64,000 nucleotides of DNA from Eledone cirrhosa (taxonomy: Eukaryota): assembly GCA_964016885.1 (NCBI GenBank), contig OZ024753.1, positions 13,454,001-13,518,000 on the forward strand. Direction: 5' to 3'. The notes beneath the pieces were generated by a model. It saw nothing but the letters and a program-made list of their open reading frames with translations. It did not search any database and had not been told where the DNA came from. Numbering within the stretch: position 1 is the stretch's first letter; each line of letters opens with the position of its first letter. The translations under genes were made by a program, and so were the position numbers. This document shows, piece by piece, positions 12,120 to 64,000 of this stretch.

Positions 12120-12185
<66 letters not shown>

Positions 12186-28821: not shown

Positions 28822-28856
<35 letters not shown>

Positions 28857-40542: not shown

Positions 40543-41210
40543 TTATTCGCTGATTTTTGCCCTTCTTGCCACACTTTCCTCACTTTTATCTGCAGGAGTT
40601 TTCGATAAAAACCTGTCCAATGAGGTTTGTTTTATCCTCCGCTTCAGAATGGTTCTGAAATGAGTTAGGCAAGTGAGATTAAATAGCGCCGTTGCACACC
40701 CAGTTGCAACTTTTCTGGGTGTTTCTTTTGAATAAAGTGTGAAAGTTTCTCCCACATTCCCAATACTACCTTTATCTCACTATAGAGATAACCTCGTCTA
40801 CGTCACCTATTTCCTGCAAAACCTCCGTGTGCTGCTGCGTCTGTAGTTCCTTTAGCTCCTCCGTTGTCAGTTCCTCGTAGTGCTCTATGATGAGCTCGTT
40901 GATGTCACCTTCATCCATGTCCGGGCCCATGGACTTGCCGAGGGATACAATCCCTTCCACCACTGCCGCTTCCGGTTCGAGTCTTTAAAGGTCCATTTCA
41001 GACACAACCTCAGGCCACTGCTTCTTCCACGCAGAGGTCAAGGTCCTCTTCGTAACACCCTGCCAGGTAATATCGCTAATTCTGAGGCTTATCACTATGT
41101 TATAGTGGTCCTTCCAGAACTCTCGAAGGGTGAGGTTTGTGTTCTCGGCGGAACAAGTGCTTGGTGAAAAGCTTCTTGAAATTAGAAATCACCTACTGAT
41201 ACATGGGATA
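40543..41210 (-). pseudogene. pogo/Tigger transposase pseudogene, C-terminal part
   Basis: Minus strand reads PM(Y)Q*VISNFKKLFTKHLFR...NLTLREFWKDHYNI...AWKK, DEGDINELI...ELTTEEL, HFRTILKRRIKQTSLDRFL, matching TIGD1-like DDE_1 C-termini; stops and frameshifts. Confidence 0.9.
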
Positions 41211-41221
41211 TGGGGGGGGGG

Positions 41222-44200
41222 GGTGTTGGCTGGAAGGTAGAGTGGGCTGTAGGATAGGGGAGGTGTTAGGTGGAAGGTAGAGTGGGCTGTAGGATAGGGG
41301 AGGTGTTGGGTGGAAGGTAGAGTGGGCTGTAGGATAGGGGAGGTGTTGGGTGGATGGTAGAGCAGGCTGTAGGATAGGGGAGGTGTTGGGTGGAAGGTAG
41401 AGTGGGCTGTAGGATAGGGGAGGTGTTGGGTGGATGGTAGAGCAGGCTGTAGGATAGGGGAGGTGTTGGGTGGAAGGTAGAGTGGGCTGTAGGATAGGGG
41501 AGGTGTTGGGTGGAAGGTAGAGAGGGCTGTAGGATAGGGGAGGTGTTGGGTGGAAGGTAGAGAGGGCTGTAGGATAGGGGAGGTGTTGGGTGGATGGTAG
41601 AGCAGGCTGTAGGATAGGGGAGGTGTTGGGTGGAAGGTAGAGTGGGCTGTAGGATAGGGGAGGTGTTGGGTGGATGGTAGAGCAGGCTGTAGGATAGGGG
41701 AGGTGTTGGGTGGAAGGTAGAGCAGGCTGTAGGATAGGGGAGGTGTTGGGTGGAAGGTAGAGTGGGCTGTAGGATAGGGGAGGTGTTGGGTGGAAGGTAG
41801 AGTGGGCTGTAGGATAGGGGAGGTGTTAGGTGGAAGGTAGAGAGGGCTGTAGGATAGGGGAGGTGTTGGGTGGAAGGTAGAGTGGGCTGTAGGATAGGGG
41901 AGGTGTTGGGTGGAAGGTAGAGAGGGCTGTAGGATAGGGGAGGTGTTGGGTGGAAGGTAGAGTGGGCTGTAGGATAGGGGAGGTGTTGGGTGGAAGGTAG
42001 AGAGGGCTGTAGGATAGGGGAGGTGTTGGGTGGAAGGTAGAGAGGGCTGTAGGATAGGGGAGGAGTTGGGTGGATGGTAGAGCAGGCTGTAGGATAGGGG
42101 AGGTGTTGGGTGGAAGGTAGAGTGGTCTGTAGGATAGGGGAGGTGTTGGGTGGATGGTAGAGTGGGCTGTAGGATAGGAGAGGTGTTGGGTGGAAGGTAG
42201 AGTGGTCTGTAGGATAGGAGAGGTGTTGGGTGGAAGGTAGAGTGGGCTGTAGGATAGGGGAGGTGTTGGGTGGAAGGTAGAGAGGGCTGTAGGATAGGGG
42301 AGGTGTTGGGTGGAAGGTAGAGTGGGCTGTAGGATAGGGGAGGTGTTGGGTGGATGGTAGAGCAGGCTGTAGGATAGGGGAGGTGTTGGGTGGAAGGTAG
42401 AGTGGGCTGTAGGATAGGGGAGGTGTTGGGTGGATGGTAGAGCAGGCTGTAGGATAGGGGAGGTGTTGGGTGGAAGGTAGAGTGGGCTGTAGGATAGGGG
42501 AGGTGTTGGGTGGATGGTAGAGCAGGCTGTAGGATAGGGGAGGTGTTGGGTGGAAGGTAGAGTGGTCTGTAGGATAGGGGAGGTGTTGGGTGGAAGGTAG
42601 AGTGGTCTGTAGGATAGGGGGGGTGTTGGGTGGAAGGTAGAGTGGGCTGTAGGATAGGGGAGGTGTTGGGTGGATGGTAGAGCAGGCTGTAGGATAGGGG
42701 AGGTGTTGGGTGGAAGGTAGAGAGGGCTGTAGGATAGGGGAGGTGTTGGGTGGAAGGTAGAGTGGGCTGTAGGATAGGGGAGGTGTTGGGTGGAAGGTAG
42801 AGTGGGCTGTAGGATAGGGGAGGTGTTGGGTGGAAGGTAGAGTGGGCTGTAGGATAGGGAAGGTGTTGGGTGGAAGGTAGAGCAGGCTGTAGGATAGGGG
42901 AGGTGTTGGGTGGAAGGTAGAGCAGGCTGTAGGATAGGGGAGGTGTTGGGTGGAAGGTAGAGCAGGCTGTAGGATAGGGAAGGTGTTGGGTGGAAGGTAG
43001 AGCAGGCTGTAGGATAGGGGAGGTGTTGGGTGGAAGGTAGAGTGGGCTGTAGGATAGGGGAGGTGTTGGGTGGAAGGTAGAGCAGGCTGTAGGATAGGGG
43101 AGGTGTTGGGTGGAAGGTAGAGTGGGCTGTAGGATAGGGGAGGTGTTGGGTGGAAGGTAGAGCAGGCTGTAGGATAGGGGAGGTGTTGGGTGGAAGGTAG
43201 AGCAGGCTGTAGGATAGGGAAGGTGTTGGGTGGAAGGTAGAGCAGGCTGTAGGATAGGGAAGGTGTTGGGTGGAAGGTAGAGCAGGCTGTAGGATAGGGG
43301 AGGTGTTGGGTGGAAGGTAGAGTGGGCTGTAGGATAGGGGAGGTGTTGGGTGGAAGGTAGAGCAGGCTGTAGGATAGGGGAGGTGTTGGGTGGAAGGTAG
43401 AGCAGGCTGTAGGATAGGGGAGGTGTTGGGTGGAAGGTAGAGTGGGCTGTAGGATAGGGGAGGTGTTGGGTGGAAGGTAGAGAGGGCTGTAGGATAGGGA
43501 AGGTGTTGGGTGGAAGGTAGAGCAGGCTGTAGGATAGGGAAGGTGTTGGGTGGAAGGTAGAGCAGGCTGTAGGATAGGGAAGGTGTTGGGTGGAAGGTAG
43601 AGTGGGCTGTAGGATAGGGGAGGTGTTGGGTGGAAGGTAGAGTGGGCTGTAGGATAGGGAAGGTGTTGGGTGGAAGGTAGAGCAGGCTGTAGGATAGGGA
43701 AGGTGTTGGGTGGAAGGTAGAGCAGGCTGTAGGATAGGGAAGGTGTTGGGTGGAAGGTAGAGTGGGCTGTAGGATAGGGGCGGTGTTGGGTGGAAGGTAG
43801 AGTGGGCTGTAGGATAGGGGAGGTGTTGGGTGGAAGGTAGAGCAGGCTGTAGGATAGGGAAGGTGTTGGGTGGAAGGTAGAGCAGGCTGTAGGATAGGGA
43901 AGGTGTTGGGTGGAAGGTAGAGCAGGCTGTAGGATAGGGAAGGTGTTGGGTGGAAGGTAGAGCAGGCTGTAGGATAGGGAAGGTGTTGGGTGGAAGGTAG
44001 AGTGGGCTGTAGGATAGGGAAGGTGTTGGGTGGAAGGTAGAGCAGGCTGTAGGATAGGGAAGGTGTTGGGTGGAAGGTAGAGCAGGCTGTAGGATAGGGA
44101 AGGTGTTGGGTGGAAGGTAGAGTGGGCTGTAGGATAGGGGAGGTGTTGGGTGGAAGGTAGAGTGGGCTGTAGGATAGGGGAGGTGTTGGGTGGAAGGTAG

Positions 44201-47200
44201 AGTGGGCTGTAGGATAGGGGAGGTGTTGGGTGGAAGGTAGAGTGGGCTGTAGGATAGGGGAGGTGTTGGGTGGAAGGTAGAGTGGGCTGTAGGATAGGGG
44301 AGGTGTTGGGTGGAAGGTAGAGTGGGCTGTAGGATAGGGGAGGTGTTGGGTGGAAGGTAGAGTGGGCTGTAGGATAGGGGAGGTGTTGGGTGGAAGGTAG
44401 AGTGGGCTGTAGGATAGGGGCGGTGTTGGGTGGAAGGTAGAGTGGGCTGTAGGATAGGGGAGGTGTTGGGTGGAAGGTAGAGTGGGCTGTAGGATAGGGG
44501 AGGTGTTGGGTGGAAGGTAGAGTGGGCTGTAGGATAGGGGCGGTGTTGGGTGGAAGGTAGAGTGGGCTGTAGGATAGGGGAGGTGTTGGGTGGAAGGTAG
44601 AGCAGGCTGTAGGATAGGGAAGGTGTTGGGTGGAAGGTAGAGCAGGCTGTAGGATAGGGAAGGTGTTGGGTGGAAGGTAGAGTGGGCTGTAGGATAGGGA
44701 AGGTGTTGGGTGGAAGGTAGAGCAGGCTGTAGGATAGGGAAGGTGTTGGGTGGAAGGTAGAGCAGGCTGTAGGATAGGGAAGGTGTTGGGTGGAAGGTAG
44801 AGTGGGCTGTAGGATAGGGGAGGTGTTGGGTGGAAGGTAGAGTGGGCTGTAGGATAGGGGAGGTGTTGGGTGGAAGGTAGAGTGGGCTGTAGGATAGGGG
44901 AGGTGTTGGGTGGAAGGTAGAGCAGGCTGTAGGATAGGGGAGGTGTTGGGTGGAAGGTAGAGTGGGCTGTAGGATAGGGGAGGTGTTGGGTGGAAGGTAG
45001 AGCAGGCTGTAGGATAGGGAAGGTGTTGGGTGGAAGGTAGAGTGGGCTGTAGGATAGGGGAGGTGTTGGGTGGAAGGTAGAGCAGGCTGTAGGATAGGGG
45101 AGGTGTTGGGTGGAAGGTAGAGCAGGCTGTAGGATAGGGGAGGTGTTGGGTGGAAGGTAGAGCAGGCTGTAGGATAGGGGAGGTGTTGGGTGGAAGGTAG
45201 AGTGGGCTGTAGGATAGGGGAGGTGTTGGGTGGAAGGTAGAGTGGGCTGTAGGATAGGGGAGGTGTTGGGTGGATGGTAGAGTGGGCTGTAGGATAGGGG
45301 AGGTGTTGGGTGGATGGTAGAGCAGGCTGTAGGATAGGGGAGGTGTTGGGTGGAAGGTAGAGTGGGCTGTAGGATAGGGGAGGTGTTGGGTGGAAGGTAG
45401 AGTGGGCTGTAGGATAGGGGAGGTGTTGGGTGGAAGGTAGAGCAGGCTGTAGGATAGGGGAGGTGTTGGGTGGAAGGTAGAGCAGGCTGTAGGATAGGGG
45501 AGGTGTTGGGTGGAAGGTAGAGTGGGCTGTAGGATAGGGGAGGTGTTGGGTGGATGGTAGAGTGGGCTGTAGGATAGGGGAGGTGTTGGGTGGATGGTAG
45601 AGCAGGCTGTAGGATAGGGGAGGTGTTGGGTGGAAGGTAGAGTGGGCTGTAGGATAGGGGAGGTGTTGGGTGGAAGGTAGAGTGGTCTGTAGGATAGGGG
45701 AGGTGTTGGGTGGAAGGTAGAGTGGTCTGTAGGATAGGGGGGGTGTTGGGTGGAAGGTAGAGTGGGCTGTAGGATAGGGGAGGTGTTGGGTGGATGGTAG
45801 AGCAGGCTGTAGGATAGGGGAGGTGTTGGGTGGAAGGTAGAGAGGGCTGTAGGATAGGGGAGGTGTTGGGTGGAAGGTAGAGTGGGCTGTAGGATAGGGG
45901 AGGTGTTGGGTGGAAGGTAGAGTGGGCTGTAGGATAGGGGAGGTGTTGGGTGGAAGGTAGAGTGGGCTGTAGGATAGGGGAGGTGTTGGGTGGAAGGTAG
46001 AGTGGGCTGTAGGATAGGGGAGGTGTTGGGTGGAAGGTAGAGTGGGCTGTAGGATAGGGGAGGTGTTGGGTGGAAGGTAGAGCAGGCTGTAGGATAGGGG
46101 AGGTGTTGGGTGGAAGGTAGAGCAGGCTGTAGGATAGGGGAGGTGTTGGGTGGAAGGTAGAGTGGGCTGTAGGATAGGGGAGGTGTTGGGTGGAAGATAG
46201 AGTGGGCTGTAGGATAGGGGAGGTGTTGGGTGGAAGGTAGCGCAGGCTGTAGGATAGGGGAGGTGTTGGGTGGAAGGTAGAGTGGGCTGTAGGATAGGGG
46301 AGGTGTTGGGTGGAAGGTAGAGTGGGCTGTAGGATAGGGGAGGTGTTGGGTGGAAGGTAGAGTGGGCTGTAGGATAGGGGAGGTGTTGGGTGGAAGGTAG
46401 AGCAGGCTGTAGGATAGGGGAGGTGTTGGGTGGAAGGTAGAGCAGGCTGTAGGATAGGGGAGGTGTTGGGTGGAAGGTAGAGCAGGCTGTGGGATAGGGG
46501 AGGTGTTGGGTGGATGGTAGAGCAGGCTGTAGGATAGGGGAGGTGTTGGGTGGAAGGTAGAGTGGGCTGTAGGATAGGGGAGGTGTTGGGTGGAAGGTAG
46601 AGCAGGCTGTAGGATAGGGGAGGTGTTGGGTGGAAGGTAGAGTGGGCTGTAGGATAGGGGAGGTGTTGGGTGGAAGGTAGAGTGGGCTGTAGGATAGGGG
46701 AGGTGTTGGGTGGAAGGTAGAGTGGGCTGTAGGATAGGGGAGGTGTTGGGTGGAAGGTAGAGTGGGCTGTAGGATAGGGGAGGTGTTGGGTGGAAGGTAG
46801 AGTGGGCTGTAGGATAGGGGAGGTGTTGGGTGGAAGGTAGAGTGGGCTGTAGGATAGGGGAGGTGTTGGGTGGAAGGTAGAGCAGGCTGTAGGATAGGGG
46901 AGGTGTTGGGTGGAAGGTAGAGTGGGCTGTAGGATAGGGGAGGTGTTGGGTGGAAGGTAGAGCAGGCTGTAGGATAGGGGAGGTGTTGGGTGGAAGGTAG
47001 AGTGGGCTGTAGGATAGGGGAGGTGTTGGGTGGAAGGTAGAGCAGGCTGTAGGATAGGGGAGGTGTTGGGTGGAAGGTAGAGTGGGCTGTAGGATAGGGG
47101 AGGTGTTGGGTGGAAGGTAGAGTGGGCTGTAGGATAGGGGAGGTGTTGGGTGGAAGGTAGAGTGGGCTGTAGGATAGGGGAGGTGTTGGGTGGAAGGTAG

Positions 47201-50200
47201 AGTGGGCTGTAGGATAGGGGAGGTGTTGGGTGGAAGGTAGAGTGGGCTGTAGGATAGGGGAGGTGTTGGGTGGATGGTAGAGCAGGCTGTAGGATAGGGG
47301 AGGTGTTGGGTGGAAGGTAGAGCAGGCTGTAGGATAGGGGAGGTGTTGGGTGGAAGGTAGAGTGGGCTGTAGGATAGGGGAGGTGTTGGGTGGATGGTAG
47401 AGCAGGCTGTAGGATAGGGGAGGTGTTGGGTGGAAGGTAGAGCAGGCTGTAGGATAGGGGAGGTGTTGGGTGGAAGGTAGAGTGGGCTGTAGGATAGGGG
47501 AGGTGTTGGGTGGATGGTAGAGCAGGCTGTAGGATAGGGGAGGTGTTGGGTGGAAGGTAGAGTGGGCTGTAGGATAGGGGAGGTGTTGGGTGGAAGGTAG
47601 AGTGGGCTGTAGGATAGGGGAGGTGTTGGGTGGAAGGTAGAGTGGGCTGTAGGATAGGGGAGGTGTTGGGTGGAAGGTAGAGCAGGCTGTAGGATAGGGG
47701 AGGTGTTGGGTGGAAGGTAGAGTGGGCTGTAGGATAGGGGAGGTGTTGGGTGGATGGTAGAGCAGGCTGTAGGATAGGGGAGGTGTTGGGTGGAAGGTAG
47801 AGCAGGCTGTAGGATAGGGGAGGTGTTGGGTGGAAGGTAGAGTGGGCTGTAGGATAGGGGAGGTGTTGGGTGGAAGGTAGAGTGGGCTGTAGGATAGGGG
47901 AGGTGTTGGGTGGAAGGTAGAGTGGGCTGTAGGATAGGGGAGGTGTTGGGTGGAAGGTAGAGCAGGCTGTAGGATAGGGGAGGTGTTGGGTGGAAGGTAG
48001 AGTGGGCTGTAGGATAGGGGAGGTGTTGGGTGGAAGGTAGAGTGGGCTGTAGGATAGGGGAGGTGTTGGGTGGAAGGTAGAGTGGGCTGTAGGATAGGGG
48101 AGGTGTTGGGTGGAAGGTAGAGCAGGCTGTAGGATAGGGGAGGTGTTGGGTGGAAGGTAGAGCAGGCTGTAGGATAGGGGAGGTGTTGGGTGGAAGGTAG
48201 AGTGGGCTGTAGGATAGGGGAGGTGTTGGGTGGAAGGTAGAGTGGGCTGTAGGATAGGGGAGGTGTTGGGTGGAAGGTAGAGCAGGCTGTAGGATAGGGG
48301 AGGTGTTGGGTGGAAGGTAGAGTGGGCTGTAGGATAGGGGAGGTGTTGGGTGGATGGTAGAGCAGGCTGTAGGATAGGGGAGGTGTTGGGTGGAAGGTAG
48401 AGCAGGCTGTAGGATAGGGGAGGTGTTGGGTGGAAGGTAGAGTGGGCTGTAGGATAGGGGAGGTGTTGGGTGGAAGGTAGAGTGGGCTGTAGGATAGGGG
48501 AGGTGTTGGGTGGAAGGTAGAGTGGGCTGTAGGATAGGGGAGGTGTTGGGTGGAAGGTAGAGCAGGCTGTAGGATAGGGGAGGTGTTGGGTGGAAGGTAG
48601 AGCAGGCTGTAGGATAGGGGAGGTGTTGGGTGGAAGGTAGAGTGGGCTGTAGGATAGGGGAGGTGTTGGGTGGAAGGTAGAGTGGGCTGTAGGATAGGGG
48701 AGGTGTTGGGTGGAAGGTAGAGCAGGCTGTAGGATAGGGGAGGTGTTGGGTGGAAGGTAGAGTGGGCTGTAGGATAGGGGAGGTGTTGGGTGGATGGTAG
48801 AGCAGGCTGTAGGATAGGGGAGGTGTTGGGTGGAAGGTAGAGCAGGCTGTAGGATAGGGGAGGTGTTGGGTGGAAGGTAGAGTGGGCTGTAGGATAGGGG
48901 AGGTGTTGGGTGGAAGGTAGAGTGGGCTGTAGGATAGGGGAGGTGTTGGGTGGAAGGTAGAGTGGGCTGTAGGATAGGGGAGGTGTTGGGTGGAAGGTAG
49001 AGCAGGCTGTAGGATAGGGGAGGTGTTGGGTGGAAGGTAGAGTGGGCTGTAGGATAGGGGAGGTGTTGGGTGGAAGGTAGAGTGGGCTGTAGGATAGGGG
49101 AGGTGTTGGGTGGAAGGTAGAGTGGGCTGTAGGATAGGGGAGGTGTTGGGTGGAAGGTAGAGTGGGCTGTAGGATAGGGGAGGTGTTGGGTGGAAGGTAG
49201 AGTGGGCTGTAGGATAGGGGAGGTGTTGGGTGGAAGGTAGAGTGGGCTGTAGGATAGGGGAGGTGTTGGGTGGAAGGTAGAGAGGGCTGTAGGATAGGGG
49301 AGGTGTTGGGTGGAAGGTAGAGTGGGCTGTAGGATAGGGGAGGTGTTGGGTGGAAGGTAGAGTGGTCTGTAGGATAGGGGAGGTGTTGGGTGGATGGTAG
49401 AGCAGGCTGTAGGATAGGGGAGGTGTTGGGTGGATGGTAGAGCAGGCTGTAGGATAGGGGAGGTGTTGGGTGGAAGGTAGAGTGGGCTGTAGGATAGGGG
49501 AGGTGTTGGGTGGATGGTAGAGTGGGCTGTAGGATAGGGGAGGTGTTGGGTGGAAGGTAGAGTGGGCTGTAGGATAGGGGAGGTGTTGGGTGGATGGTAG
49601 AGTGGGCTGTAGGATAGGGGAGGTGTTGGGTGGATGGTAGAGTGGGCTGTAGGATAGGGGAGGTGTTGGGTGGAAGGTAGAGTGGGCTGTAGGATAGGGG
49701 AGGTGTTGGGTGGAAGGTAGAGTGGGCTGTAGGATAGGGGAGGTGTTGGGTGGAAGGTAGAGTGGGCTGTAGGATAGGGGAGGTGTTGGGTGGAAGGTAG
49801 AGTGGGCTGTAGGATAGGGGAGGTGTTGGGTGGAAGGTAGAGTGGGCTGTAGGATAGGGGAGGTGTTGGGTGGAAGGTAGAGTGGGCTGTAGGATAGGGG
49901 AGGTGTTGGGTGGAAGGTAGAGTGGGCTGTAGGATAGGGGAGGTGTTGGGTGGAAGGTAGAGTGGGCTGTAGGATAGGGGAGGTGTTGGGTGGAAGGTAG
50001 AGTGGGCTGTAGGATAGGGGAGGTGTTGGGTGGAAGGTAGAGTGGGCTGTAGGATAGGGGAGGTGTTGGGTGGAAGGTAGAGTGGGCTGTAGGATAGGGG
50101 AGGTGTTGGGTGGAAGGTAGAGTGGGCTGTAGGATAGGGGAGGTGTTGGGTGGAAGGTAGAGTGGGCTGTAGGATAGGGGAGGTGTTGGGTGGAAGGTAG

Positions 50201-53200
50201 AGTGGGCTGTAGGATAGGGGAGGTGTTGGGTGGAAGGTAGAGTGGGCTGTAGGATAGGGGAGGTGTTGGGTGGAAGGTAGAGAGGGCTGTAGGATAGGGG
50301 AGGTGTTGGGTGGAAGGTAGAGTGGGCTGTAGGATAGGGGAGGTGTTGGGTGGAAGGTAGAGTGGGGTGTAGGATAGGGGAGGTGTTGGGTGGAAGGTAG
50401 AGTGGGCTGTAGGATAGGGGAGGTGTTGGGTGGAAGGTAGAGTGGGCTGTAGGATAGGGGAGGTGTTGGGTGGAAGGTAGAGAGGGCTGTAGGATAGGGG
50501 AGGTGTTGGGTGGAAGGTAGAGTGGGCTGTAGGATAGGGGAGGTGTTGGGTGGATGGTAGAGTGGGCTGTAGGATAGGGGAGGTGTTGGGTGGATGGTAG
50601 AGTGGGCTGTAGGATAGGGGAGGTGTTGGGTGGAAGGTAGAGTGGGCTGTAGGATAGGGGAGGTGTTGGGTGGAAGGTAGAGTGGGCTGTAGGATAGGGG
50701 AGGTGTTGGGTGGAAGGTAGAGTGGGCTGTAGGATAGGGGAGGTGTTGGGTGGAAGGTAGAGTGGGCTGTAGGATAGGGGAGGTGTTGGGTGGAAGGTAG
50801 AGTGGGCTGTAGGATAGGGGAGGTGTTGGGTGGAAGGTAGAGTGGGCTGTAGGATAGGGGAGGTGTTGGGTGGAAGGTAGAGTGGGCTGTAGGATAGGGG
50901 AGGTGTTGGGTGGAAGGTAGAGTGGGCTGTAGGATAGGGGAGGTGTTGGGTGGAAGGTAGAGAGGGCTGTAGGATAGGGGAGGTGTTGGGTGGAAGGTAG
51001 AGTGGGCTGTAGGATAGGGGAGGTGTTGGGTGGAAGGTAGAGTGGGCTGTAGGATAGGGGAGGTGTTGGGTGGAAGGTAGAGTGGGGTGTAGGATAGGGG
51101 AGGTGTTGGGTGGAAGGTAGAGTGGGCTGTAGGATAGGGGAGGTGTTGGGTGGAAGGTAGAGTGGGCTGTAGGATAGGGGAGGTGTTGGGTGGATGGTAG
51201 AGCAGGCTGTAGGATAGGGGAGGTGTTGGGTGGAAGGTAGAGTGGTCTGTAGGATAGGGGAGGTGTTGGGTGGATGGTAGAGTGGGCTGTAGGATAGGAG
51301 AGGTGTTGGGTGGAAGGTAGAGCAGGCTGTAGGATAGGGGAGGTGTTGGGTGGAAGGTAGAGTGGGCTGTAGGATAGGGGAGGTGTTGGGTGGAAGGTAG
51401 AGAGGGGTGTAGGATAGGGGAGGTGTTGGGTGGAAGGTAGAGTGGGCTGTAGGATAGGGGAGGTGTTGGGTGGAAGGTAGAGTGGGCTGTAGGATAGGGG
51501 AGGTGTTGGGTGGAAGGTAGCGCAGGCTGTAGGATAGGGGAGGTGTTGGGTGGAAGGTAGAGTGGGCTGTAGGATAGGGGAGGTGTTGGGTGGAAGGTAG
51601 AGAGGGGTGTAGGATAGGGGAGGTGTTGGGTGGATGGTAGAGAGGGGTGTAAGATAGGGGAGGTGTTGGGTGGATGGTAGAGAGGGGTGTAAGATAGGGG
51701 AGGTGTTGGGTGGATGGTAGAGAGGGGTGTAAGATAGGGGAGGTGTTGAGTGGAAGGTAGAGTGGGCTGTAGGATAGGGGAGGTGTTGGGTGGAAGGTAG
51801 AGTGGGCTGTAGGATAGGGGAGGTGTTGGGTGGAAGGTAGAGTGGGCTGTAGGATAGGGGAGGTGTTGGGTGGAAGGTAGAGAGGGGTGTAGGATAGGGG
51901 AGGTGTTGGGTGGATGGTAGAGAGGGGTGTAAGATAGGGGAGGTGTTGGGTGGATGGTAGAGAGGGGTGTAAGATAGGGGAGGTGTTGGGTGGATGGTAG
52001 AGAGGGGTGTAAGATAGGGGAGGTGTTGAGTGGAAGGTAGAGCAGGCTGTAGGATAGGGGAGGTGTTGGGTGGAAGGTAGAGAGGGCTGTAGGATAGGGG
52101 AGGTGTTGGGTGGAAGGTAGAGAGGGCTGTAGGATAGTGGTGGTGTTGGGTGGAAGGTAGAGAGGGCTGTAGGATAGGGGAGGTGTTGGGTGGAAGGTAG
52201 AGTGGGCTGTAGGATAGTGGTGGTGTTGGGTGGAAGGTAGAGCAGGCTGTAGGATAGGGGAGGTGTTGGGTGGAAGGTAGAGCAGGCTGTAGGATAGGGG
52301 AGGTGTTGGGTGGAAGGTAGAGTGGGCTGTAGGATAGGGGAGGTGTTGGGTGGAAGGTAGAGAGGGCTGTAGGATAGGGGAGGTGTTGGGTGGAAGGTAG
52401 AGCAGGCTGTAGGATAGGGAAGGTGTTGGGTGGAAGGTAGAGTGGGCTGTAGGATAGGGGTGGTGTTGGGTGGAAGGTAGAGCAGGCTGTAGGATAGGGA
52501 AGGTGTTGGGTGGAAGGTAGAGTGGGCTGTAGGATAGGGGAGGTGTTGGGTGGAAGGTAGAGAGGGCTGTAGGATAGGGGAGGTGTTGGGTGGAAGGTAG
52601 AGCAGGCTGTAGGATAGGGGAGGTGTTGGGTGGAAGGTAGAGCAGGCTGTAGGATAGGGGAGGAGTTGGGTGGAAGGTAGGGTGGGGTGTAGGATAGGGG
52701 AGGTGTTGGGTGGAAGGTAGAGCAGGCTGTAGGATAGGGGAGGAGTTGGGTGGAAGGTAGGGTGGGGTGTAGGATAGGGGAGGTGTTGGGTGGAAGGTAG
52801 AGAGGGCTGTAGGATAGGGGAGGTGTTGGGTGGAAGGTAGAGCAGGCTGTAGGATAGGGGAGGTGTTGGGTGGAAGGTAGAGCAGGCTGTAGGATAGGGG
52901 AGGAGTTGGGTGGAAGGTAGGGTGGGGTGTAGGATAGGGGAGGTGTTGGGTGGAAGGTAGGGTGGGGTGTAGGATAGGGGAGGTGTTGGGTGGAAGGTAG
53001 AGCAGGCTGTAGGATAGGGAAGGTGTTGGGTGGAAGGTAGAGTGGGGTGTAGGATAGGGGAGGTGTTGGGTGGAAGGTAGAGCAGGCTGTAGGATAGGGG
53101 AGGTGTTGGGTGGAAGGTAGAGTGGGCTGTAGGATAGGGGAGGTGTTGGGTGGAAGGTAGGGTGGGGTGTAGGATAGGGGAGGTGTTGGGTGGAAGGTAG

Positions 53201-56200
53201 AGCAGGCTGTAGGATAGGGAAGGTGTTGGGTGGAAGGTAGAGTGGGGTGTAGGATAGGGGAGGTGTTGGGTGGAAGGTAGAGCAGGCTGTAGGATAGGGG
53301 AGGTGTTGGGTGGAAGGTAGAGCAGGCTGTAGGATAGGGGAGGTGTTGGGTGGAAGGTAGAGCGGGTGTAGGATAGGGGAGGTGTTGGGTGGAAGGTAGA
53401 GCAGGCTGTAGGATAGGGAAGGTGTTGGGTGGATGGTAGAGTGGGGTGTAGGATAGGGGAGGTGTTGGGTGGAAGGTAGAGCAGGCTGTAGGATAGGGGA
53501 GGTGTTGGGTGGAAGGTAGAGCAGGCTGTAGGATAGGGGAGGTGTTGGGTGGAAGGTAGAGCAGGCTGTAGGATAGGGGAGGTGTTGGGTGGAAGGTAGA
53601 GCGGGTGTAGGATAGGGGAGGTGTTGGGTGGATGGTAGAGCAGGCTGTAGGATAGGGGAGGTGTTGGGTGGAAGGTAGAGTGGGGTGTAGGATAGGGGAG
53701 GTGTTGGGTGGAAGGTAGAGCAGGCTGTAGGATAGGGGAGGTGTTGGGTGGATGGTAGAGCAGGCTGTAGGATAGGGGAGGTGTTGGGTGGAAGGTAGAG
53801 TGGGCTGTAGGATAGGGGAGGTGTTGGGTGGAAGGTAGAGCGGGTGTAGGATAGGGGAGGTGTTGGGTGGAAGGTAGAGTGGGCTGTAGGATAGGGGAGG
53901 TGTTGGGTGGAAGGTAGAGTGGGGTGTAGGATAGGGGAGGTGTTGGGTGGATGGTAGAGCAGGCTGTAGGATAGGGGAGGTGTTGGGTGGAAGGTAGAGC
54001 AGGCTGTAGGATAGGGGAGGTGTTGGGTGGAAGGTAGAGCGGGTGTAGGATAGGGGAGGTGTTGGGTGGAAGGTAGAGTGGGCTGTAGGATAGGGGAGGT
54101 GTTGGGTGGAAGGTAGAGTGGGGTGTAGGATAGGGGAGGTGTTGGGTGGAAGGTAGAGCAGGCTGTAGGATAGGGGAGGTGTTGGGTGGAAGGTAGAGCG
54201 GGTGTAGGATAGGGGAGGTGTTGGGTGGAAGGTAGAGTGGGCTGTAGGATAGGGGAGGTGTTGGGTGGAAGGTAGAGTGGGGTGTAGGATAGGGGAGGTG
54301 TTGGGTGGATGGTAGAGCAGGCTGTAGGATAGGGGAGGTGTTGGGTGGAAGGTAGAGCAGGCTGTAGGATAGGGGAGGTGTTGGGTGGAAGGTAGAGCGG
54401 GTGTAGGATAGGGGAGGTGTTGGGTGGAAGGTAGAGTGGGCTGTAGGATAGGGGAGGTGTTGGGTGGAAGGTAGAGTGGGGTGTAGGATAGGGGAGGTGT
54501 TGGGTGGAAGGTAGAGCAGGCTGTAGGATAGGGGAGGTGTTGGGTGGAAGGTAGAGCGGGTGTAGGATAGGGGAGGTGTTGGGTGGAAGGTAGAGTGGGC
54601 TGTAGGATAGGGGAGGTGTTGGGTGGAAGGTAGAGTGGGGTGTAGGATAGGGGAGGTGTTGGGTGGATGGTAGAGCAGGCTGTAGGATAGGGGAGGTGTT
54701 GGGTGGAAGGTAGAGCAGGCTGTAGGATAGGGGAGGTGTTGGGTGGAAGGTAGAGCAGGCTGTAGGATAGGGGAGGTGTTGGGTGGAAGGTAGAGCAGGC
54801 TGTAGGATAGGGGAGGTGTTGGGTGGAAGGTAGAGCGGGTGTAGGATAGGGGAGGTGTTGGGTGGATGGTAGAGCAGGCTGTAGGATAGGGGAGGTGTTG
54901 GGTGGAAGGTAGAGTGGGGTGTAGGATAGGGGAGGTGTTGGGTGGATGGTAGAGCAGGCTGTAGGATAGGGGAGGTGTTGGGTGGAAGGTAGAGTGGGCT
55001 GTAGGATAGGGGAGGTGTTGGGTGGAAGGTAGGGTGGGGTGTAGGATAGGGGAGGTGTTGGGTGGAAGGTAGAGCAGGCTGTAGGATAGGGAAGGTGTTG
55101 GGTGGAAGGTAGAGTGGGGTGTAGGATAGGGGAGGTGTTGGGTGGAAGGTAGAGCAGGCTGTAGGATAGGGGAGGTGTTGGGTGGATGGTAGAGCAGGCT
55201 GTAGGATAGGGGAGGTGTTGGGTGGATGGTAGAGCAGGCTGTAGGATAGGGGAGGTGTTGGGTGGAAGGTAGAGTGGGGTGTAGGATAGGGGAGGTGTTG
55301 GGTGGATGGTAGAGCAGGCTGTAGGATAGGGGAGGTGTTGGGTGGAAGGTAGAGCAGGCTGTAGGATAGGGGAGGTGTTGGGTGGATGGTAGAGCAGGCT
55401 GTAGGATAGGGGAGGTGTTGGGTGGAAGGTAGAGCAGGCTGTAGGATAGGGGAGGTGTTGGGTGGATGGTAGAGCAGGCTGTAGGATAGGGGAGGTGTTG
55501 GGTGGATGGTAGAGCAGGCTGTAGGATAGGGGAGGTGTTGGGTGGAAGGTAGGGTGGGGTGTAGGATAGGGGAGGTGTTGGGTGGAAGGTAGAGCAGGCT
55601 GTAGGATAGGGGAGGTGTTGGGTGGAAGGTAGAGCAGGCTGTAGGATAGGGAAGGTGTTGGGTGGAAGGTAGAGCAGGCTGTAGGATAGGGGAGGTGTTG
55701 GGTGGATGGTAGAGTAGGCTGTAGGATAGGGGAGGTGTTGGGTGGAAGGTAGAGAGGGCTGTAGGATAGGGGAGGTGTTGGGTGGAAGGTAGAGTGGGGT
55801 GTAGGATAGGGGAGGTGTTGGGTGGAAGGTAGAGCAGGCTGTAGGATAGGGAAGGTGTTGGGTGGAAGGTAGAGTGGGGTGTAGGATAGGGGAGGTGTTG
55901 GGTGGAAGGTAGAGCAGGCTGTAGGATAGGGGAGGTGTTGGGTGGATGGTAGAGCAGGCTGTAGGATAGGGAAGGTGTTGGGTGGAAGGTAGAGTGGGGT
56001 GTAGGATAGGGGAGGTGTTGGGTGGAAGGTAGAGCAGGCTGTAGGATAGGGAAGGTGTTGGGTGGAAGGTAGAGTGGGCTGTAGGATAGGGGAGGTGTTG
56101 GGTGGAAGGTAGAGTGGGGTGTAGGATAGGGGAGGTGTTGGGTGGAAGGTAGAGCAGGCTGTAGGATAGGGAAGGTGTTGGGTGGAAGGTAGAGTGGGCT

Positions 56201-59200
56201 GTAGGATAGGGGAGGTGTTGGGTGGAAGGTAGAGTGGGGTGTAGGATAGGGGAGGTGTTGGGTGGAAGGTAGAGTGGGGTGTAGGATAGGGGAGGTGTTG
56301 GGTGGAAGGTAGAGCAGGCTGTAGGATAGGGAAGGTGTTGGGTGGAAGGTAGAGTGGGGTGTAGGATAGGGGAGGTGTTGGGTGGAAGGTAGAGTGGGGT
56401 GTAGGATAGGGGAGGTGTTGGGTGGAAGGTAGAGCAGGCTGTAGGATAGGGAAGGTGTTGGGTGGAAGGTAGAGTGGGCTGTAGGATAGGGGAGATGTTG
56501 GGTGGATGGTAGAGCAGGCTGTAGGATAGGGAAGGTGTTGGGTGGAAGGTAGAGTGGGGTGTAGGATAGGGGAGGTGTTGGGTGGAAGGTAGAGCAGGCT
56601 GTAGGATAGGGAAGGTGTTGGGTGGAAGGTAGAGCAGGCTGTAGGATAGGGGAGGTGTTGGGTGGAAGGTAGAGTGGGCTGTAGGATAGGGGAGGTGTTG
56701 GGTGGAAGGTAGAGAGGGCTGTAGGATAGGGGAGATGTTGGGTGGAAGGTAGAGTGGGCTGTAGGATAGGGGAGGTGTTGGGTGGAAGGTAGAGCAGGCT
56801 GTGGGATAGGGGAGGTGTTGGGTGGAAGGTAGAGTGGGGTGTAGGATAGGGGAGGTGTTGGGTGGAAGGTAGAGTGGGCTGTAGGATAGGGGAGGTGTTG
56901 GGTGGAAGGTAGAGTGGGCTGTAGGATAGGGGAGGTGTTGGGTGGAAGGTAGAGTGGGCTGTAGGATAGGGGAGGTGTTGGGTGGAAGGTAGAGCAGGCT
57001 GTAGGATAGGGGAGGTGTTGGGTGGAAGGTAGAGTGGGCTGTAGGATAGGGGAGGTGTTGGGTGGAAGGTAGAGAGGGCTGTAGGATAGGGGAGATGTTG
57101 GGTGGAAGGTAGAGTGGGCTGTAGGATAGGGGAGGTGTTGGGTGGAAGGTAGAGCAGGCTGTAGGATAGGGGAGGTGTTGGGTGGAAGGTAGAGTGGGCT
57201 GTAGGATAGGGGAGGTGTTGGGTGGAAGGTAGAGAGGGCTGTAGGATAGGGGAGATGTTGGGTGGAAGGTAGAGTGGGCTGTAGGATAGGGGAGGTGTTG
57301 GGTGGAAGGTAGAGCAGGCTGTGGGATAGGGGAGGTGTTGGGTGGAAGGTAGAGCAGGCTGTAGGATAGGGGAGATGTTGGGTGGAAGGTAGAGTGGGCT
57401 GTAGGATAGGGGAGATGTTGGGTGGAAGGTAGAGTGGGCTGTAGGATAGGGGAGGTGTTGGGTGGAAGGTAGAGTGGGCTGTAGGATAGGGGAGATGTTG
57501 GGTGGAAGGTAGAGTGGGCTGTAGGATAGGGGAGGTGTTGGGTGGAAGGTAGAGAGGGCTGTAGGATAGGGGAGGTGTTGGGTGGAAGGTAGAGTGGGCT
57601 GTAGGATAGGGGAGATGTTGGGTGGAAGGTAGAGTGGGCTGTAGGATAGGGGAGGTGTTGGGTGGAAGGTAGAGCAGGCTGTAGGATAGGGGAGGTGTTG
57701 GGTGGAAGGTAGAGAGGGCTGTAGGATAGGGGAGGTGTTGGGTGGAAGGTAGAGTGGGCTGTAGGATAGGGGAGATGTTGGGTGGAAGGTAGAGTGGGCT
57801 GTAGGATAGGGGAGGTGTTGGGTGGAAGGTAGAGCAGGCTGTAGGATAGGGGAGGTGTTGGGTGGAAGGTAGAGTGGGCTGTAGGATAGGGGAGGTGTTG
57901 GGTGGAAGGTAGAGCAAGCTGTAGGATAGGGAAGGTGTTGGGTGGAAGGTAGAGCAGGCTGTAGGATAGGGGAGGTGTTGGGTGGAAGGTAGAGTGGGCT
58001 GTAGGATAGGGGAGGTGTTGGGTGGAAGGTAGAGCAAGCTGTAGGATAGGGAAGGTGTTGGGTGGAAGGTAGAGCAGGCTGTAGGATAGGGGAGGTGTTG
58101 GGTGGAAGGTAGAGTGGGCTGTAGGATAGGGGAGGTGTTGGGTGGATGGTAGAGCAGGCTGTAGGATAGGGGAGGTGTTGGGTGGAAGGTAGAGTGGGCT
58201 GTAGGATAGGGGAGGTGTTGGGTGGAAGGTAGAGTGGGCTGTAGGATAGGGGAGGTGTTGGGTGGAAGGTAGAGCAGGCTGTAGGATAGGGGAGGTGTTG
58301 GGTGGAAGGTAGAGTGGGCTGTAGGATAGGGGAGGTGTTGAGTGGAAGGTAGAGTGGGCTGTAGGATAGGGGAGGTGTTGGGTGGAAGGTAGAGCAGGCT
58401 GTAGGATAGGGGAGGTGTTGGGTGGAAGGTAGAGTGGGCTGTAGGATAGGGGAGATGTTGGGTGGAAGGTAGAGTGGGCTGTAGGATAGGGGAGGTGTTG
58501 GGTGGAAGGTAGAGAGGGCTGTAGGATAGGGGAGGTGTTGGGTGGAAGGTAGAGCAGGCTGTAGGATAGGGGAGGTGTTGGGTGGAAGGTAGAGTGGGCT
58601 GTAGGATAGGGGAGGTGTTGGGTGGAAGGTAGAGCAGGCTGTAGGATAGGGGAGGTGTTGGGTGGAAGGTAGAGTGGGCTGTAGGATAGGGGAGGTGTTG
58701 GGTGGAAGGTAGAGTGGGCTGTAGGATAGGGGAGGTGTTGGGTGGAAGGTAGAGAGGGCTGTAGGATAGGGGAGGTGTTGGGTGGAAGGTAGAGCAGGCT
58801 GTAGGATAGGGGAGGTGTTGGGTGGAAGGTAGAGTGGGCTGTAGGATAGGGGAGGTGTTGGGTGGAAGGTAGAGAGGGCTGTAGGATAGGGGAGGTGTTG
58901 GGTGGAAGGTAGAGCAGGCTGTAGGATAGGGGAGGTGTTGGGTGGAAGGTAGAGCAGGCTGTAGGATAGGGGAGGTGTTGGGTGGAAGGTAGAGTGGGCT
59001 GTAGGATAGGGGAGGTGTTGGGTGGAAGGTAGAGTGGGCTGTAGGATAGGGGAGGTGTTGGGTGGATGGTAGAGTGGGCTGTAGGATAGGGGAGGTGTTG
59101 GGTGGAAGGTAGAGCAGGCTGTAGGATAGGGGAGGTGTTGGGTGGAAGGTAGAGTGGGCTGTAGGATAGGGGAGGTGTTGGGTGGAAGGTAGAGCAGGCT

Positions 59201-62200
59201 GTAGGATAGGGGAGGTGTTGGGTGGAAGGTAGAGTGGGCTGTAGGATAGGGGAGGTGTTGGGTGGAAGGTAGAGTGGGCTGTAGGATAGGGGAGATGTTG
59301 GGTGGATGGTAGAGTGGGCTGTAGGATAGGGGAGGTGTTGGGTGGAAGGTAGAGCAGGCTGTAGGATAGGGGAGGTGTTGGGTGGAAGGTAGAGCAGGCT
59401 GTAGGATAGGGGAGGTGTTGGGTGGAAGGTAGAGTGGGCTGTAGGATAGGGGAGATGTTGGGTGGATGGTAGAGTGGGCTGTAGGATAGGGGAGGTGTTG
59501 GGTGGAAGGTAGAGTGGGCTGTAGGATAGGGGAGGTGTTGGGTGGAAGGTAGAGTGGGCTGTAGGATAGGGGAGATGTTGGGTGGAAGGTAGAGTGGGCT
59601 GTAGGATAGGGGAGGTGTTGGGTGGAAGGTAGAGTGGGCTGTAGGATAGGGGAGGTGTTGGGTGGAAGGTAGAGTGGGCTGTAGGATAGGGGAGGTGTTG
59701 GGTGGAAGGTAGAGTGGGCTGTAGGATAGGGGAGGTGTTGGGTGGATGGTAGAGCAGGCTGTAGGATAGGGGAGGTGTTGGGTGGAAGGTAGAGTGGGCT
59801 GTAGGATAGGGGAGGTGTTGGGTGGAAGGTAGAGCAGGCTGTAGGATAGGGGAGGTGTTGGGTGGAAGGTAGAGTGGGCTGTAGGATAGGGGAGGTGTTG
59901 GGTGGAAGGTAGAGTGGGCTGTAGGATAGGGGAGGTGTTGGGTGGATGGTAGAGCAGGCTGTAGGATAGGGGAGGTGTTGGGTGGAAGGTAGAGTGGGCT
60001 GTAGGATAGGGGAGGTGTTGGGTGGAAGGTAGAGTGGGCTGTAGGATAGGGGAGGTGTTGGGTGGAAGGTAGAGCAGGCTGTAGGATAGGAGAGGTGTTG
60101 GGTGGAAGGTAGAGTGGGCTGTAGGATAGGGGAGGTGTTGGGTGGAAGGTAGAGTGGGCTGTAGGATAGGGGAGGTGTTGGGTGGAAGGTAGAGCAGGCT
60201 GTAGGATAGGGGAGGTGTTGGGTGGAAGGTAGAGCGGGTGTAGGATAGGGGAGGTGTTGGGTGGATGGTAGAGCAGGCTGTAGGATAGGGGAGGTGTTGG
60301 GTGGAAGGTAGAGTGGGCTGTAGGATAGGGGAGGTGTTGGGTGGAAGGTAGAGTGGGCTGTAGGATAGGGGAGGTGTTGAGTGGAAGGTAGAGTGGGCTG
60401 TAGGATAGGGGAGGTGTTGGGTGGAAGGTAGAGTGGGCTGTAGGATAGGGGAGGTGTTGGGTGGAAGGTAGAGCAGGCTGTAGGATAGGGGAGGTGTTGG
60501 GTGGAAGGTAGAGTGGGCTGTAGGATAGGGGAGGTGTTGGGTGGAAGGTAGAGCAGGCTGTAGGATAGGGGAGGTGTTGGGTGGAAGGTAGAGCGGGTGT
60601 AGGATAGGGGAGGTGTTGGGTGGATGGTAGAGCAGGCTGTAGGATAGGGGAGGTGTTGGGTGGAAGGTAGAGTGGGCTGTAGGATAGGGGAGGTGTTGGG
60701 TGGAAGGTAGAGCAGGCTGTAGGATAGGGGAGGTGTTGGGTGGAAGGTAGAGTGGGCTGTAGGATAGGGGAGGTGTTGGGTGGAAGGTAGAGCAGGCTGT
60801 AGGATAGGGGAGGTGTTGGGTGGAAGGTAGAGTGGGCTGTAGGATAGGGGAGGTGTTGGGTGGAAGGTAGAGTGGGCTGTAGGATAGGGGAGGTGTTGGG
60901 TGGAAGGTAGAGCAGGCTGTAGGATAGGGGAGGTGTTGGGTGGAAGGTAGAGTGGGCTGTAGGATAGGGGAGGTGTTGGGTGGAAGGTAGAGCAGGCTGT
61001 AGGATAGGGGAGGTGTTGGGTGGAAGGTAGAGTGGGCTGTAGGATAGGGGAGGTGTTGGGTGGATGGTAGAGTGGGGTGTAGGATAGGGGAGGTGTTGGG
61101 TGGAAGGTAGAGCAGGCTGTAGGATAGGGGAGGTGTTGGGTGGAAGGTAGAGTGGGCTGTAGGATAGGGGAGGTGTTGGGTGGAAGGTAGAGTGGGCTGT
61201 AGGATAGGGGAGGTGTTGGGTGGAAGGTAGAGCAGGCTGTAGGATAGGGGAGGTGTTGGGTGGAAGGTAGAGTGGGCTGTAGGATAGGGGAGGTGTTGGG
61301 TGGAAGGTAGAGCAGGCTGTAGGATAGGGGAGGTGTTGGGTGGAAGGTAGAGTGGGCTGTAGGATAGGGGAGGTGTTGGGTGGATGGTAGAGCAGGCTGT
61401 AGGATAGGGGAGGTGTTGGGTGGAAGGTAGAGTGGGCTGTAGGATAGGGGAGGTGTTGAGTGGAAGGTAGAGTGGGCTGTAGGATAGGGGAGGTGTTGGG
61501 TGGAAGGTAGAGCAGGCTGTAGGATAGGGGAGGTGTTGGGTGGAAGGTAGAGTGGGCTGTAGGATAGGGGAGGTGTTGGGTGGAAGGTAGAGTGGGCTGT
61601 AGGATAGGGGAGGTGTTGGGTGGAAGGTAGAGCAGGCTGTAGGATAGGGGAGGTGTTGGGTGGAAGGTAGAGTGGGCTGTAGGATAGGGGAGGTGTTGGG
61701 TGGAAGGTAGAGTGGGCTGTAGGATAGGGGAGGTGTTGGGTGGAAGGTAGAGTGGGCTGTAGGATAGGGGAGGTGTTGGGTGGAAGGTAGAGCAGGCTGT
61801 AGGATAGGGGAGGTGTTGGGTGGAAGGTAGAGTGGGCTGTAGGATAGGGGAGGTGTTGGGTGGATGGTAGAGCAGGCTGTAGGATAGGGGAGGTGTTGGG
61901 TGGAAGGTAGAGTGGGCTGTAGGATAGGGGAGGTGTTGGGTGGATGGTAGAGTGGGGTGTAGGATAGGGGAGGTGTTGGGTGGATGGTAGAGTGGGCTGT
62001 AGGATAGGGGAGGTGTTGAGTGGAAGGTAGAGTGGGCTGTAGGATAGGGGAGGTGTTGGGTGGAAGGTAGAGCAGGCTGTAGGATAGGGGAGGTGTTGGG
62101 TGGAAGGTAGAGTGGGCTGTAGGATAGGGGAGGTGTTGGGTGGAAGGTAGAGTGGGCTGTAGGATAGGGGAGGTGTTGGGTGGAAGGTAGAGCAGGCTGT

Positions 62201-62547
62201 AGGATAGGGGAGGTGTTGGGTGGAAGGTAGAGCAGGCTGTAGGATAGGGGAGGTGTTGGGTGGAAGGTAGAGTGGGCTGTAGGATAGGGGAGGCGTTCGG
62301 TGGATGGTAGAGCAGGCTGTAGGATAGGGGAGGTGTTGGGTGGAAGGTAGAGTGGGCTGTAGGATAGGGGAGGTGTTTTGGTGGAGGTAGAGTGGGCTGT
62401 AGGATAGGGTAGACGTTGGGTGGATGTTAGAGTGGGCTGTAGGGTAGGGGAGGTGTTGGGTGGATGGTAGCGCAGGCTGTAGGATAGGGGAGGCGTTGGG
62501 TGCAAGCTAGAGTGGGCTGTAGGATACGGGAGGCGTTGAGTGGAAGG
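41222..62547. repeat. ~21.3-kb satellite of a 40-bp unit (~530 copies): GGTGTTGGGTGGAAGGTAGAG(TG/CA)GGCTGTAGGATAGGGGA
   Basis: Uninterrupted tandem array; minus-strand unit CTCTACCTTCCACCCAACACCTCCCCTATCCTACAGCCCA encodes LYLPPNTSPILQP plus 1 nt. Confidence 0.98.
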
Positions 62548-63514
62548 ATGTCATCTTCAAGGTTAGGTGGATGAACAGGTGCATTGTACAGGAGAAGAAG
62601 GGCTTGCAGGGTAGGTTATTTTCCTGGAGATATTTCTTAACATCAAGACCAAAGACCAAATTCACCAACTCCACAAAGGATTGCCTGGGAAGCCACGCCC
62701 TCGGGTTTGCCCTCCACACAACCTGCAGTTTTTTTCTTTCAGAATCTTATGTGACTTAAAAGCTCTGAGGTTTCCTGAGTGATAAACGAGCAGCGGCTTA
62801 ATCTTGCAGTCGCCGCTCGTATTAGCACACAGTGTGAAGGTTAACCTGTCCTTCATGGGTTTGTGGCCAGGCATCCTCTTCTCGTCTGCCGTTATATAAG
62901 TCCTCCTTGGCATCTTCTTCCAAAAAAGTCCTGTCTCATCACAGTTGAAGACTTGCTGAGGGATGCATCCTTTGGCTGCTATAATTCCTGCAAAAGTTTT
63001 GAGCTAATCCTCATCTGCCTTCATATCCACACTCGCTGCCTCACCATGTCTGAAAACGGAGTGAATGCTGGTCTTCTTTTTAAAATTCTTGAACCAGCCC
63101 CGACTGGCTTTAAACGGCTCGCCCGATGCCTTGTCCGTCGAAGTACCTGGGGTCTGCTGCAGCAAATCAGCGTAAGTAGCTCCTGCTTTCTCGCAGATTA
63201 TAGCCTCCGTCGCGGTATCTCCTGCGAGCTGCTTCTCCATCAACCACACTATCAGTAGCTTTTCCATATTTTCATGGATAGATGTCCGCTGTTTAGAAAT
63301 TATTTTAAGTCCCTTAGCTGGGGTTATAGCCTTTATCTACTCTTCCTGCTTCAGTATGGTGCAAATTGTAGAAATGCTACGCTCGTACTGCTTCGCCAAG
63401 TCGACTACATGCATACCATGGTCGTTTGTCGATAATTTCTTTCTTTAATTCAATGCACATCATCCGCTTCTTCTTCTCAGCCCTGCCCTTCGTGCTCACT
63501 TTCTTCGGACTATT
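62548..63514 (-). pseudogene. pogo/Tigger transposase pseudogene, N-terminal part (CENP-B-type HTH domains and first part of DDE_1)
   Basis: PKKVS...LAKQYERSISTICTILK, MEKLLIVWL, FKASRGWFKNFKK...RHGEAAS, VFNCDETGLFWKKMPRRTYI, KDRLT...ANTSGDCKIKPLLVYHS, LLLL(Y)NAPVHPPNLEDDIL; start codon lost, stops and frameshifts. Confidence 0.92.
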
Positions 63515-64000
63515 TCAATATATATATTCGTGTACAGATATATTTGCATACACAAAAACAAAAACCTATTTATTTCACGAAAGCACAGACGGCCTATCGT
63601 CATTGTTACTGTTCGAGGTTAGAGGACCACAGTCTTTCCAAGATAGGCCCCCATAACCATATATATTCTGAAACTACATTGCCCAGGGTACTTGGATAAG
63701 TATATTTCATTTTAATCAAAGGGTTCCCTGGGGGCACAAACCCCTGCTCAAAATTGTTTCCCTTCGATTTATATGAAATTTAAACCATAGGTAAATGACA
63801 AGATATAATGCCTATTCACAAAATTTCAGCAAATTTCAATAATATTAATACACCCTAATGGTGAAAATTTTGGAAGCCCAAATAAAATAATGCTTTACAC
63901 AAAAATGAAATGATCAAGTTTTGAATTGATATTTTGAAAAAAATGATTTACAAGAAGCAAAATAAGAATAAGATTTAATAATGTAATTTTGATTTGATAT

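Follow-up and report, generated by a model that had tools for sequence, protein, structure and literature searches.

The birth of tandem repeats from transposon sequence, coding sequence included, is a known and ordinary process. About 23% of human minisatellites and satellites are transposon derived, with hotspots within elements and cases that occupy several loci, and the human catalogue holds 125 tandem repeats matched to Tigger, one of which (a Tigger1 repeat of 63 bp in 4 copies) reads, by eye, I-D-N-A-P-V-H-P on the reverse strand, which is the motif of the second catalytic Asp (PMC3389668). Satellites related to retrotransposon reading frames have also been reviewed, and no part of an element was found to be preferred (PMC9659126). 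In maize, the CRM1TR and CRM4TR arrays come from similar regions of related elements, and two of their loci share an origin, one of the explanations offered being conversion into a resident element (PMC3648361). In Drosophila, Rsp-like repeats have colonized existing arrays of the 1.688 satellite, with interlocus conversion or reintegration of circles as the proposed routes (PMC7403614). Here we describe a 64-kb stretch of the Eledone cirrhosa genome (assembly GCA_964016885.1, contig OZ024753.1, positions 13,454,001 to 13,518,000; hereafter, the window), in which a decayed pogo/Tigger-type transposon contains a 21-kb array of a 40-bp piece of its own transposase sequence. A second, much shorter array is found at the same site of another copy of this transposon family on a different chromosome, C28, and shares with the first one the repeat junction and a marker base.

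As in the human cases (PMC3389668), a piece of a transposon has been duplicated at its own position. In the rows of that catalogue that were compared (32 of the 125), Tigger repeats have 2 to 20 copies, versus 534 in the window, a high number for this class within the limits of that comparison. The human multilocus repeats are attributed to transposition, whereas we propose a transfer between non-sister copies. The maize arrays (PMC3648361) derive from the long terminal repeats (LTRs) or untranslated regions (UTRs) of retrotransposons, have long monomers, and lie 1.4 Mb apart on a single chromosome, whereas the unit described here is 40 bp of DNA transposon coding sequence and occurs on two chromosomes. 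The Drosophila case (PMC7403614) involves two unrelated satellites joined through microhomology at many loci, as opposed to homologous transposon copies at two loci. Finally, the human minisatellite CEB1 likewise has a G-rich strand, and its instability in yeast is dependent on the capacity for forming G-quadruplexes (G4s); G4 formation has been demonstrated for CEB1, whereas the window array has a marginal G4 prediction only (PMC2673046). A literature search that took in few subscription journals and the same 32 human Tigger rows turned up no account of an array from a transposase frame that non-sister copies have in common. The marked second locus is what is new. The first arrival of a repeat on a second chromosome is rarely seen, since in most cases neither the parent sequence nor the markers survive. 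At these loci, the single-copy parent state is preserved in some 30 independent paralogs, the hosts are assignable to different subfamilies, and the unit is tagged by a junction and a private base, which makes conversion, transposition, and parallel origin separable by means of orthologous loci in related species.

Tandem Repeats Finder (TRF) detects a single period-40 array in the window, with 95% matches and no excess of indels (Table 1), and a unit-by-unit decomposition yields 534 units of 52 sequence types. The initial annotation, made from the sequence alone, had reported some 530 copies of a 40-mer inside a minus-strand transposase; the TRF count of 533.5 agrees with it, as do the translations of the flanks, which on the minus strand are ...LLLYNAPVHPPNLEDDIL (5' side) and ...PMYQ*VISNFKKLFTKHLF (3' side). 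The GC skew of the plus strand is ~0.89 across the array. One reading frame of the unit is LYLPPNTSPILQP; since 40 is not divisible by 3, the array is not a single peptide repeat. A coding role was rejected, as each unit shifts the frame and the host is a pseudogene, and the array most likely has no function. With locally expanded head-to-tail units in the size range of 10 to 100 bp, it belongs to the transposon-derived minisatellites; its two loci of 21 kb and 1.1 kb set it apart from centromeric and heterochromatic satellites, which form megabase arrays or occupy many loci. There is no N anywhere in the window. Contigs from two runs (X19 and X20) of one sample, possibly the assembled one, span positions 62400 to 62635 with 0 differences; they support the 5' junction, and the 21-kb length is that of the assembly. 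One reduced-representation run gave zero coverage at the array edge, and small-share runs were left out of the evidence.

Table 1. Features of the window related to the array, its host transposon, and other minisatellites
Feature	Positions	Strand	Remarks
3' terminal inverted repeat (TIR; from 40319) with TA target site (40317-40318)	40317..40346	-	Matches both TIRs of the full-length C28 copy
Foreign sequence, ~120 bp, replacing most of the 3' UTR	40347..40469	.	Gap in family alignments
3' part of transposase pseudogene and beginning of 3' UTR	40470..41203	-	Further ~21-bp deletion
Degenerate last unit with poly-C run, then third-Asp codon changed to Tyr and a stop common to part of the family	41204..41242	-	
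40-bp tandem array, 533.5 copies	41217..62547	-	TRF; unit is native LYLPPNT(T/S)PILQP codons; plus strand G rich
Diverged edge units 1-7	62273..62547	-	~13 private changes in 275 bp, i.e., 4.7% (95% interval, 2.5-8.1%), hand count
3-bp microhomology (CCT) at the 33-bp deletion joining the 5' flank to the first, truncated unit	62545..62547	-	Three paralogs; junction in X19/X20 contigs, 0 differences
5' part of transposase pseudogene: start region, HTH_Tnp_Tc5 (63010-63336), first-Asp motif NCDETG, second Asp changed to Tyr	62548..63510	-	Stops and frameshifts; 5' UTR and 5' TIR gone
Other minisatellites: 143 bp x 6; 36 bp x 4.8; 28 bp x 61	14231-15095; 23692-23865; 26436-28195		TRF

The repeat unit is native to the element. 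In other copies of the family, the 40-mer sits once at the position of the array (VLYLPPNTTPILQP, ahead of the third Asp), and the paralogs read DDILEEFKFIKVLYLPPNTTPILQPxDQQVIS with one 40-mer. The unit agrees with the family majority at 38 of its 40 bases and keeps the register of both flanks. The major unit of the window differs from this majority by two fixed changes, A to T at base 22 and G to A at base 33; of the 24 paralog rows, 21 have A at base 22 and the other 3 are unreadable there. The short segment that appeared to be missing at the array edge is indeed deleted, the loss amounting to 33 bp. For the 40-bp duplication itself, the parent sequence offers just 1 base of microhomology. 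Among the described models of minisatellite birth (PMC3389668, PMC6947457) is one that starts from flanking direct repeats of 5 to 10 bp; it is inapplicable here because the parent flanks share only 1 base, and no such repeats surround the unit in the parent. Thus, the array is almost certainly the family's own 40-mer amplified in place, ahead of the third Asp, as the initial annotation had it.

The host is a decayed minus-strand transposon of the pogo/Tigger type, whose flanks read with stops and frameshifts and whose second and third catalytic Asp codons have both become Tyr codons. Genome-wide searches covered the 3.0-Gb assembly; the counts of family copies given below are lower bounds, and the two pattern counts are complete. 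Among the matches listed, the 5' part of the window copy is 84 to 89% identical to at least 39 other places in the genome. Individual family copies differ from the majority sequence by ~5 to 12%, and the window host differs from it by 6.0%. The DDE_1 domain (PF03184) is recognized with an E value of 1e-17 in a 270-amino-acid frame of a paralog that aligns to both window flanks, and HTH_Tnp_Tc5 (PF03221) is recognized with an E value of 6e-08 in the window itself; a search of solved structures with the HTH piece gave 0 matches. The last two catalytic Asp are 36 apart (DD36D) in 3 of 3 paralogs, which fits the ranges of both Tigger (DD29-36D) and pogoR (DD29-59D) (PMC7386202). The Tigger family is characterized by DDE_1, by HTH_Tnp_Tc5 with or without CENP-B_N, and by short TIRs with a TA target duplication (PMC7386202). 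Assignment to Tigger rather than pogoR is tentative and based on domains, spacing, and TIRs; the neighbors in the Atlas are DDE_1 clusters, one of which is named tigger derived. The full-length copy on C28 has both short TIRs and TA ends. The window copy retains the 3' TIR with its TA and, as a correction to the earlier description, is truncated at the 5' end: everything upstream of the start codon is missing, with the break at ~63510. The displaced 5' TIR that an insertion would have left was found neither in the window nor in the next 29 kb. The sequence adjoining the truncated end (63511 to 64000) is a very high-copy repeat, with a contig depth of ~100,000 versus ~1,000 on the transposon body.

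Private changes are found mostly in units 1 to 7, and the 3' end of the array is uniform up to the last unit. Comparison of the edge divergence (Table 1) with the distance of the host from the family majority indicates that the age of the array approaches that of the insertion. The mean difference between interior units is 4.4%. Neighboring units show 1.56 to 1.66 differences, versus 1.78 +/- 0.04 when shuffled, so that neighbors are more alike, and the unit variants cluster regionally. The diverged edge units (~5%) and the regional variant domains support the claim of local amplification with both coding flanks kept. The overall pattern suggests a long-lived array reshuffled by local exchange.

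The best other match of the window array (C13:13495217-13516547) in the genome lies at 86.84 Mb of C28 (array at C28:86837716-86838815), in a full-length copy of the same family that carries a 1.1-kb array at the same site; the idea of a single locus did not survive the genome-wide search. The C28 array consists of 20 units, of which 7 are 40 bp long, 12 are 65 bp long, and one is a terminal unit. All 12 genome matches to its 65-bp junction are on C28 and none is in the window, whereas the 40-bp junction is identical in C28 and the window. A 24-base pattern of the latter junction, with one mismatch allowed, has 504 reverse and 7 forward matches in the whole genome, which are the 504 of the window and the 7 of C28. 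Likewise, the pattern with the marker T at base 22 is found 443 + 2 times, which are the 443 of the window and the 2 of C28. Both the junction and the marker base are therefore confined to these two loci. Units 1 and 5 of C28 are the same as the major unit of the window, base 22 included, other units keep the family alleles, and unit 2 has several private changes; the C28 array is a mosaic of marked and family-type units. Arrays are present in 2 of 32 independent copies of the family, both at this site, when the cluster on C25 described below and a close pair on C4 are each counted once. None was seen at 38 further sites checked (9 of this family, 20 of a second family, and 9 more distant). 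Other array-like matches, on C17, C18, C20, and C357, turned out to be unrelated: the four stretches around these six places have no match to the transposase, and TRF reports units of 12, 20, and 38 bp in three of them. In four read runs compared with a single-copy paralog, there was no joint that goes back 40 bp; there was none in the run that contains the array edge either, so that this result is uninformative on other species. The second, more uniform pogo-type family, which is 71 to 76% identical to the first, has the same LPPNTT site and an array in 0 of 20 sites (L090-L097, L099-L101, L103-L105, L110-L113, L115, and L124).

The two hosts are 11.0% apart and have 0 private shared substitutions in 1584 sites. 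The C28 copy groups with five copies that have a single 40-mer (support of 94/97 in one tree and 88 in another), carries 9 of the 11 covered diagnostic bases of their subfamily, and has the 15-bp deletion of this subfamily; the window host has 1 of 9 diagnostic bases and no such deletion. Outside the elements, the flanks are unrelated except for three matches of 89 to 183 bp to dispersed repeats, and a segmental duplication between the loci was rejected on these grounds. Judged by these comparisons, the hosts are non-sister copies from different subfamilies. With no private shared substitutions in the hosts and unrelated flanks around them, the shared characters are limited to one unit and its junction. 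Under the substitution spectrum of the family, the probability that the 6 to 8 changes of C28 itself would hit the base-22 change is 0.03 to 0.04, and that of hitting both changes is 0.003 to 0.006; these values exclude the chance of the same repeat phase, which comes on top.

We consider ectopic gene conversion, in either direction, to be the probable source of the sharing with C28. Of the birth in situ that had been claimed for the array, growth at the locus is upheld. The first duplication of the 40-mer is less settled because the non-sister C28 copy has the same junction and private marker base, although we lean, a little less firmly than for conversion, toward the window locus. The preferred direction is from the window to C28, given that marked and family-type units are mixed in C28 and that 534 templates are available in the window. 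The complete sequence of events, birth in the window copy followed by conversion into C28, is a serious candidate that we would stop just short of calling probable. It could have proceeded as follows. The family inserted as a burst and then decayed. The proline-rich codons of LPPNTTP, which have the highest skew in the element, may have made the site prone to stalling or breakage, possibly via a G-quadruplex. Soon after the insertion, the window copy would have doubled the 40-mer over the 1-base microhomology. Unequal exchange and conversion would then have expanded the array, leaving the old 5' edge, the even 3' edge, and the regional variants that are now observed. At some point, the C28 copy, where a separate 65-bp repeat is present at the site, may have suffered a break that was repaired off the window array, and thereby gained one unit with its junction. 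Repair-mediated insertion of one satellite into the existing arrays of another has been published (PMC7403614).

Several observations pull the other way. The window has no unit with the family alleles at both markers, and both edges of its array are damaged (the 33-bp deletion and the degenerate last unit), which fits a recipient too. The two fixed changes had to predate an array whose age is close to that of the element. The base-33 change is also found in 5 of the 24 paralog rows, leaving base 22 as the sole clean marker. As for the hosts, the approximately unbiased (AU) test does not reject the topology with the two as sisters (p = 0.084), the subfamily members that define the diagnostic sites were picked from the tree, and the 15-bp deletion recurs in other branches of that tree.

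The same features of the window (no family-type unit, one edge with the 33-bp microhomology deletion, and the opposite edge with a degenerate unit) would fit a scenario in which the 40-bp junction arose at C28, e.g., when a 65-bp unit lost its 25-bp tail, and was copied into the window by break repair and expanded there. The array would then be native in sequence and position, yet born elsewhere. C28 does have family-type, intermediate, and marked units, and its array is old as well, to judge from the private changes of unit 2. However, its 65-bp junction leaves no trace in the window, its 20 templates compare with 534 in the window, and its unit 1 is unchanged from the major unit of the window despite the age of the window array. 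We regard this origin as rather unlikely.

An independent duplication of the same 40 bp in both copies, with the breakpoints set by the G-rich tract and the shared base being a coincidence, appears slightly less likely still. The unit matches the most skewed stretch of the element almost to the base, and C28 made a second, private duplication of 65 bp at the same site. However, the microhomology at the junction is only 1 base, the same phase and the same transversion would be required (the latter with the probability of 0.03 to 0.04 given above), and 30 other independent copies and the C25 cluster have no array.

It is less probable again that a non-autonomous parent with a two-unit duplication gave rise to both insertions, a course of events for which there is a proposed precedent in human LTR12 repeats (PMC3389668). 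Such a parent would account for two arrays that are both nearly as old as their hosts (in the window, 4.7% at the edge versus 6.0% for the element); sisterhood is not rejected by the AU test, and both hosts fall inside one 11-row starred clade. On the other hand, the hosts lack private shared substitutions, the 5 other members of the C28 subfamily have no duplication, and the window is excluded from this subfamily, so that recombination between parents would be needed anyway. An assembly artefact, with a true array far below 21 kb, is very improbable: no read spans the array in the runs examined, so that its claimed length has read support at the 5' junction and not over the whole, but the 52 unit types occupy regional domains in which the longest repeated run of types is at most 16 units, which is evidence against an artefact, and the contig depth summed over edge units 2 to 4 is ~250 to 280x that of the locus-specific contig (X19 and X20), a ratio that is no copy number.

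Whichever copy was first, the amplified sequence is a distinctive one: the 40-mer is the most C/G-skewed 40 bp of the element. It ranks among the highest 1% of 40-bp windows for absolute G4Hunter score in 15 of the 17 copies of at least 1400 bp, mostly within 1 to 2 bases of the maximum, and its skew stems from consecutive proline and threonine codons. An analogy with CEB1 (PMC2673046) suggests that this skew may have had a role in the birth of the repeat. The predictions for the array itself are less favorable to such a role: its mean G4Hunter score is 1.27, there are only 8 three-tier motifs in 21 kb, and folding of two units by ViennaRNA with G4s enabled yields no structure. The site shows no clear enrichment of small indels (6 events compared with an average of 3.8; it ranks 9th among 47 bins), and an indel hotspot was rejected as not significant. 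One may speculate, with considerable reserve, that, in pogo-type transposases, the proline codons preceding the third catalytic Asp are a G-quadruplex-prone nursery of minisatellites, whose arrays can seed homologous fossils on other chromosomes by conversion. If so, the two-locus pair would be a marked snapshot of the first step of a single-locus repeat toward a dispersed satellite family, made without transposition. The emphasis of the initial annotation on the catalytic core of a CENP-B-related gene was overstated, given that the host is a pseudogene, that the unit coincides with the most skewed 40 bp in 15 of the 17 copies tested, and that human Tigger repeats, including one over a catalytic motif, were already known. 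Further, CENP-B derives from pogoR, not Tigger (PMC7386202), so that its link to a Tigger-type host exists only at the superfamily level. Neither the catalytic position nor the link to CENP-B appears to be more than incidental.

Several observations concern other copies of the family. The cluster on C25, between 19.16 and 23.85 Mb, contains at least 88 exact matches to the native site of the transposon among the matches listed. There, the fossil rides in tandem C2H2 zinc-finger frames of 404 to 600 amino acids (4 in the 70 kb sampled, L128-L134). Three copies from the cluster differ by 2.6 to 3.0%, versus 8.1% to the nearest outside relative, so that the 4.7-Mb cluster likely expanded after the decay of the transposon and can be dated by the fossil. 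The in-frame 15-bp deletion just 5' of the 40-mer, between short direct repeats, is found in at least 3 branches of the tree (e.g., L002, L006, and L072). A copy at 371.99 Mb of C2 includes ~7 TTAGGG-type telomeric units (L067:1453-1498), possibly a scar of break repair, and one at 25.44 Mb of C25 has ~340 bp of its own 5' end repeated inside its 3' part (L059:6313-6654).

No host gene was identified around the array in the window, the long frames in positions 1 to 40300 being mostly retrotransposon or simple repeat. An open 163-codon frame with a poly-Q run (28568-29059, plus strand) is possibly a host exon, with a Pfam match that is sub-threshold only. A young-looking non-LTR retrotransposon is represented by an open 843-codon frame (9660-12191, minus strand) with RVT_1 and PHD-like matches, and related fragments occur elsewhere in the window. 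The region is also rich in tandem repeats, with three more minisatellites listed in Table 1.

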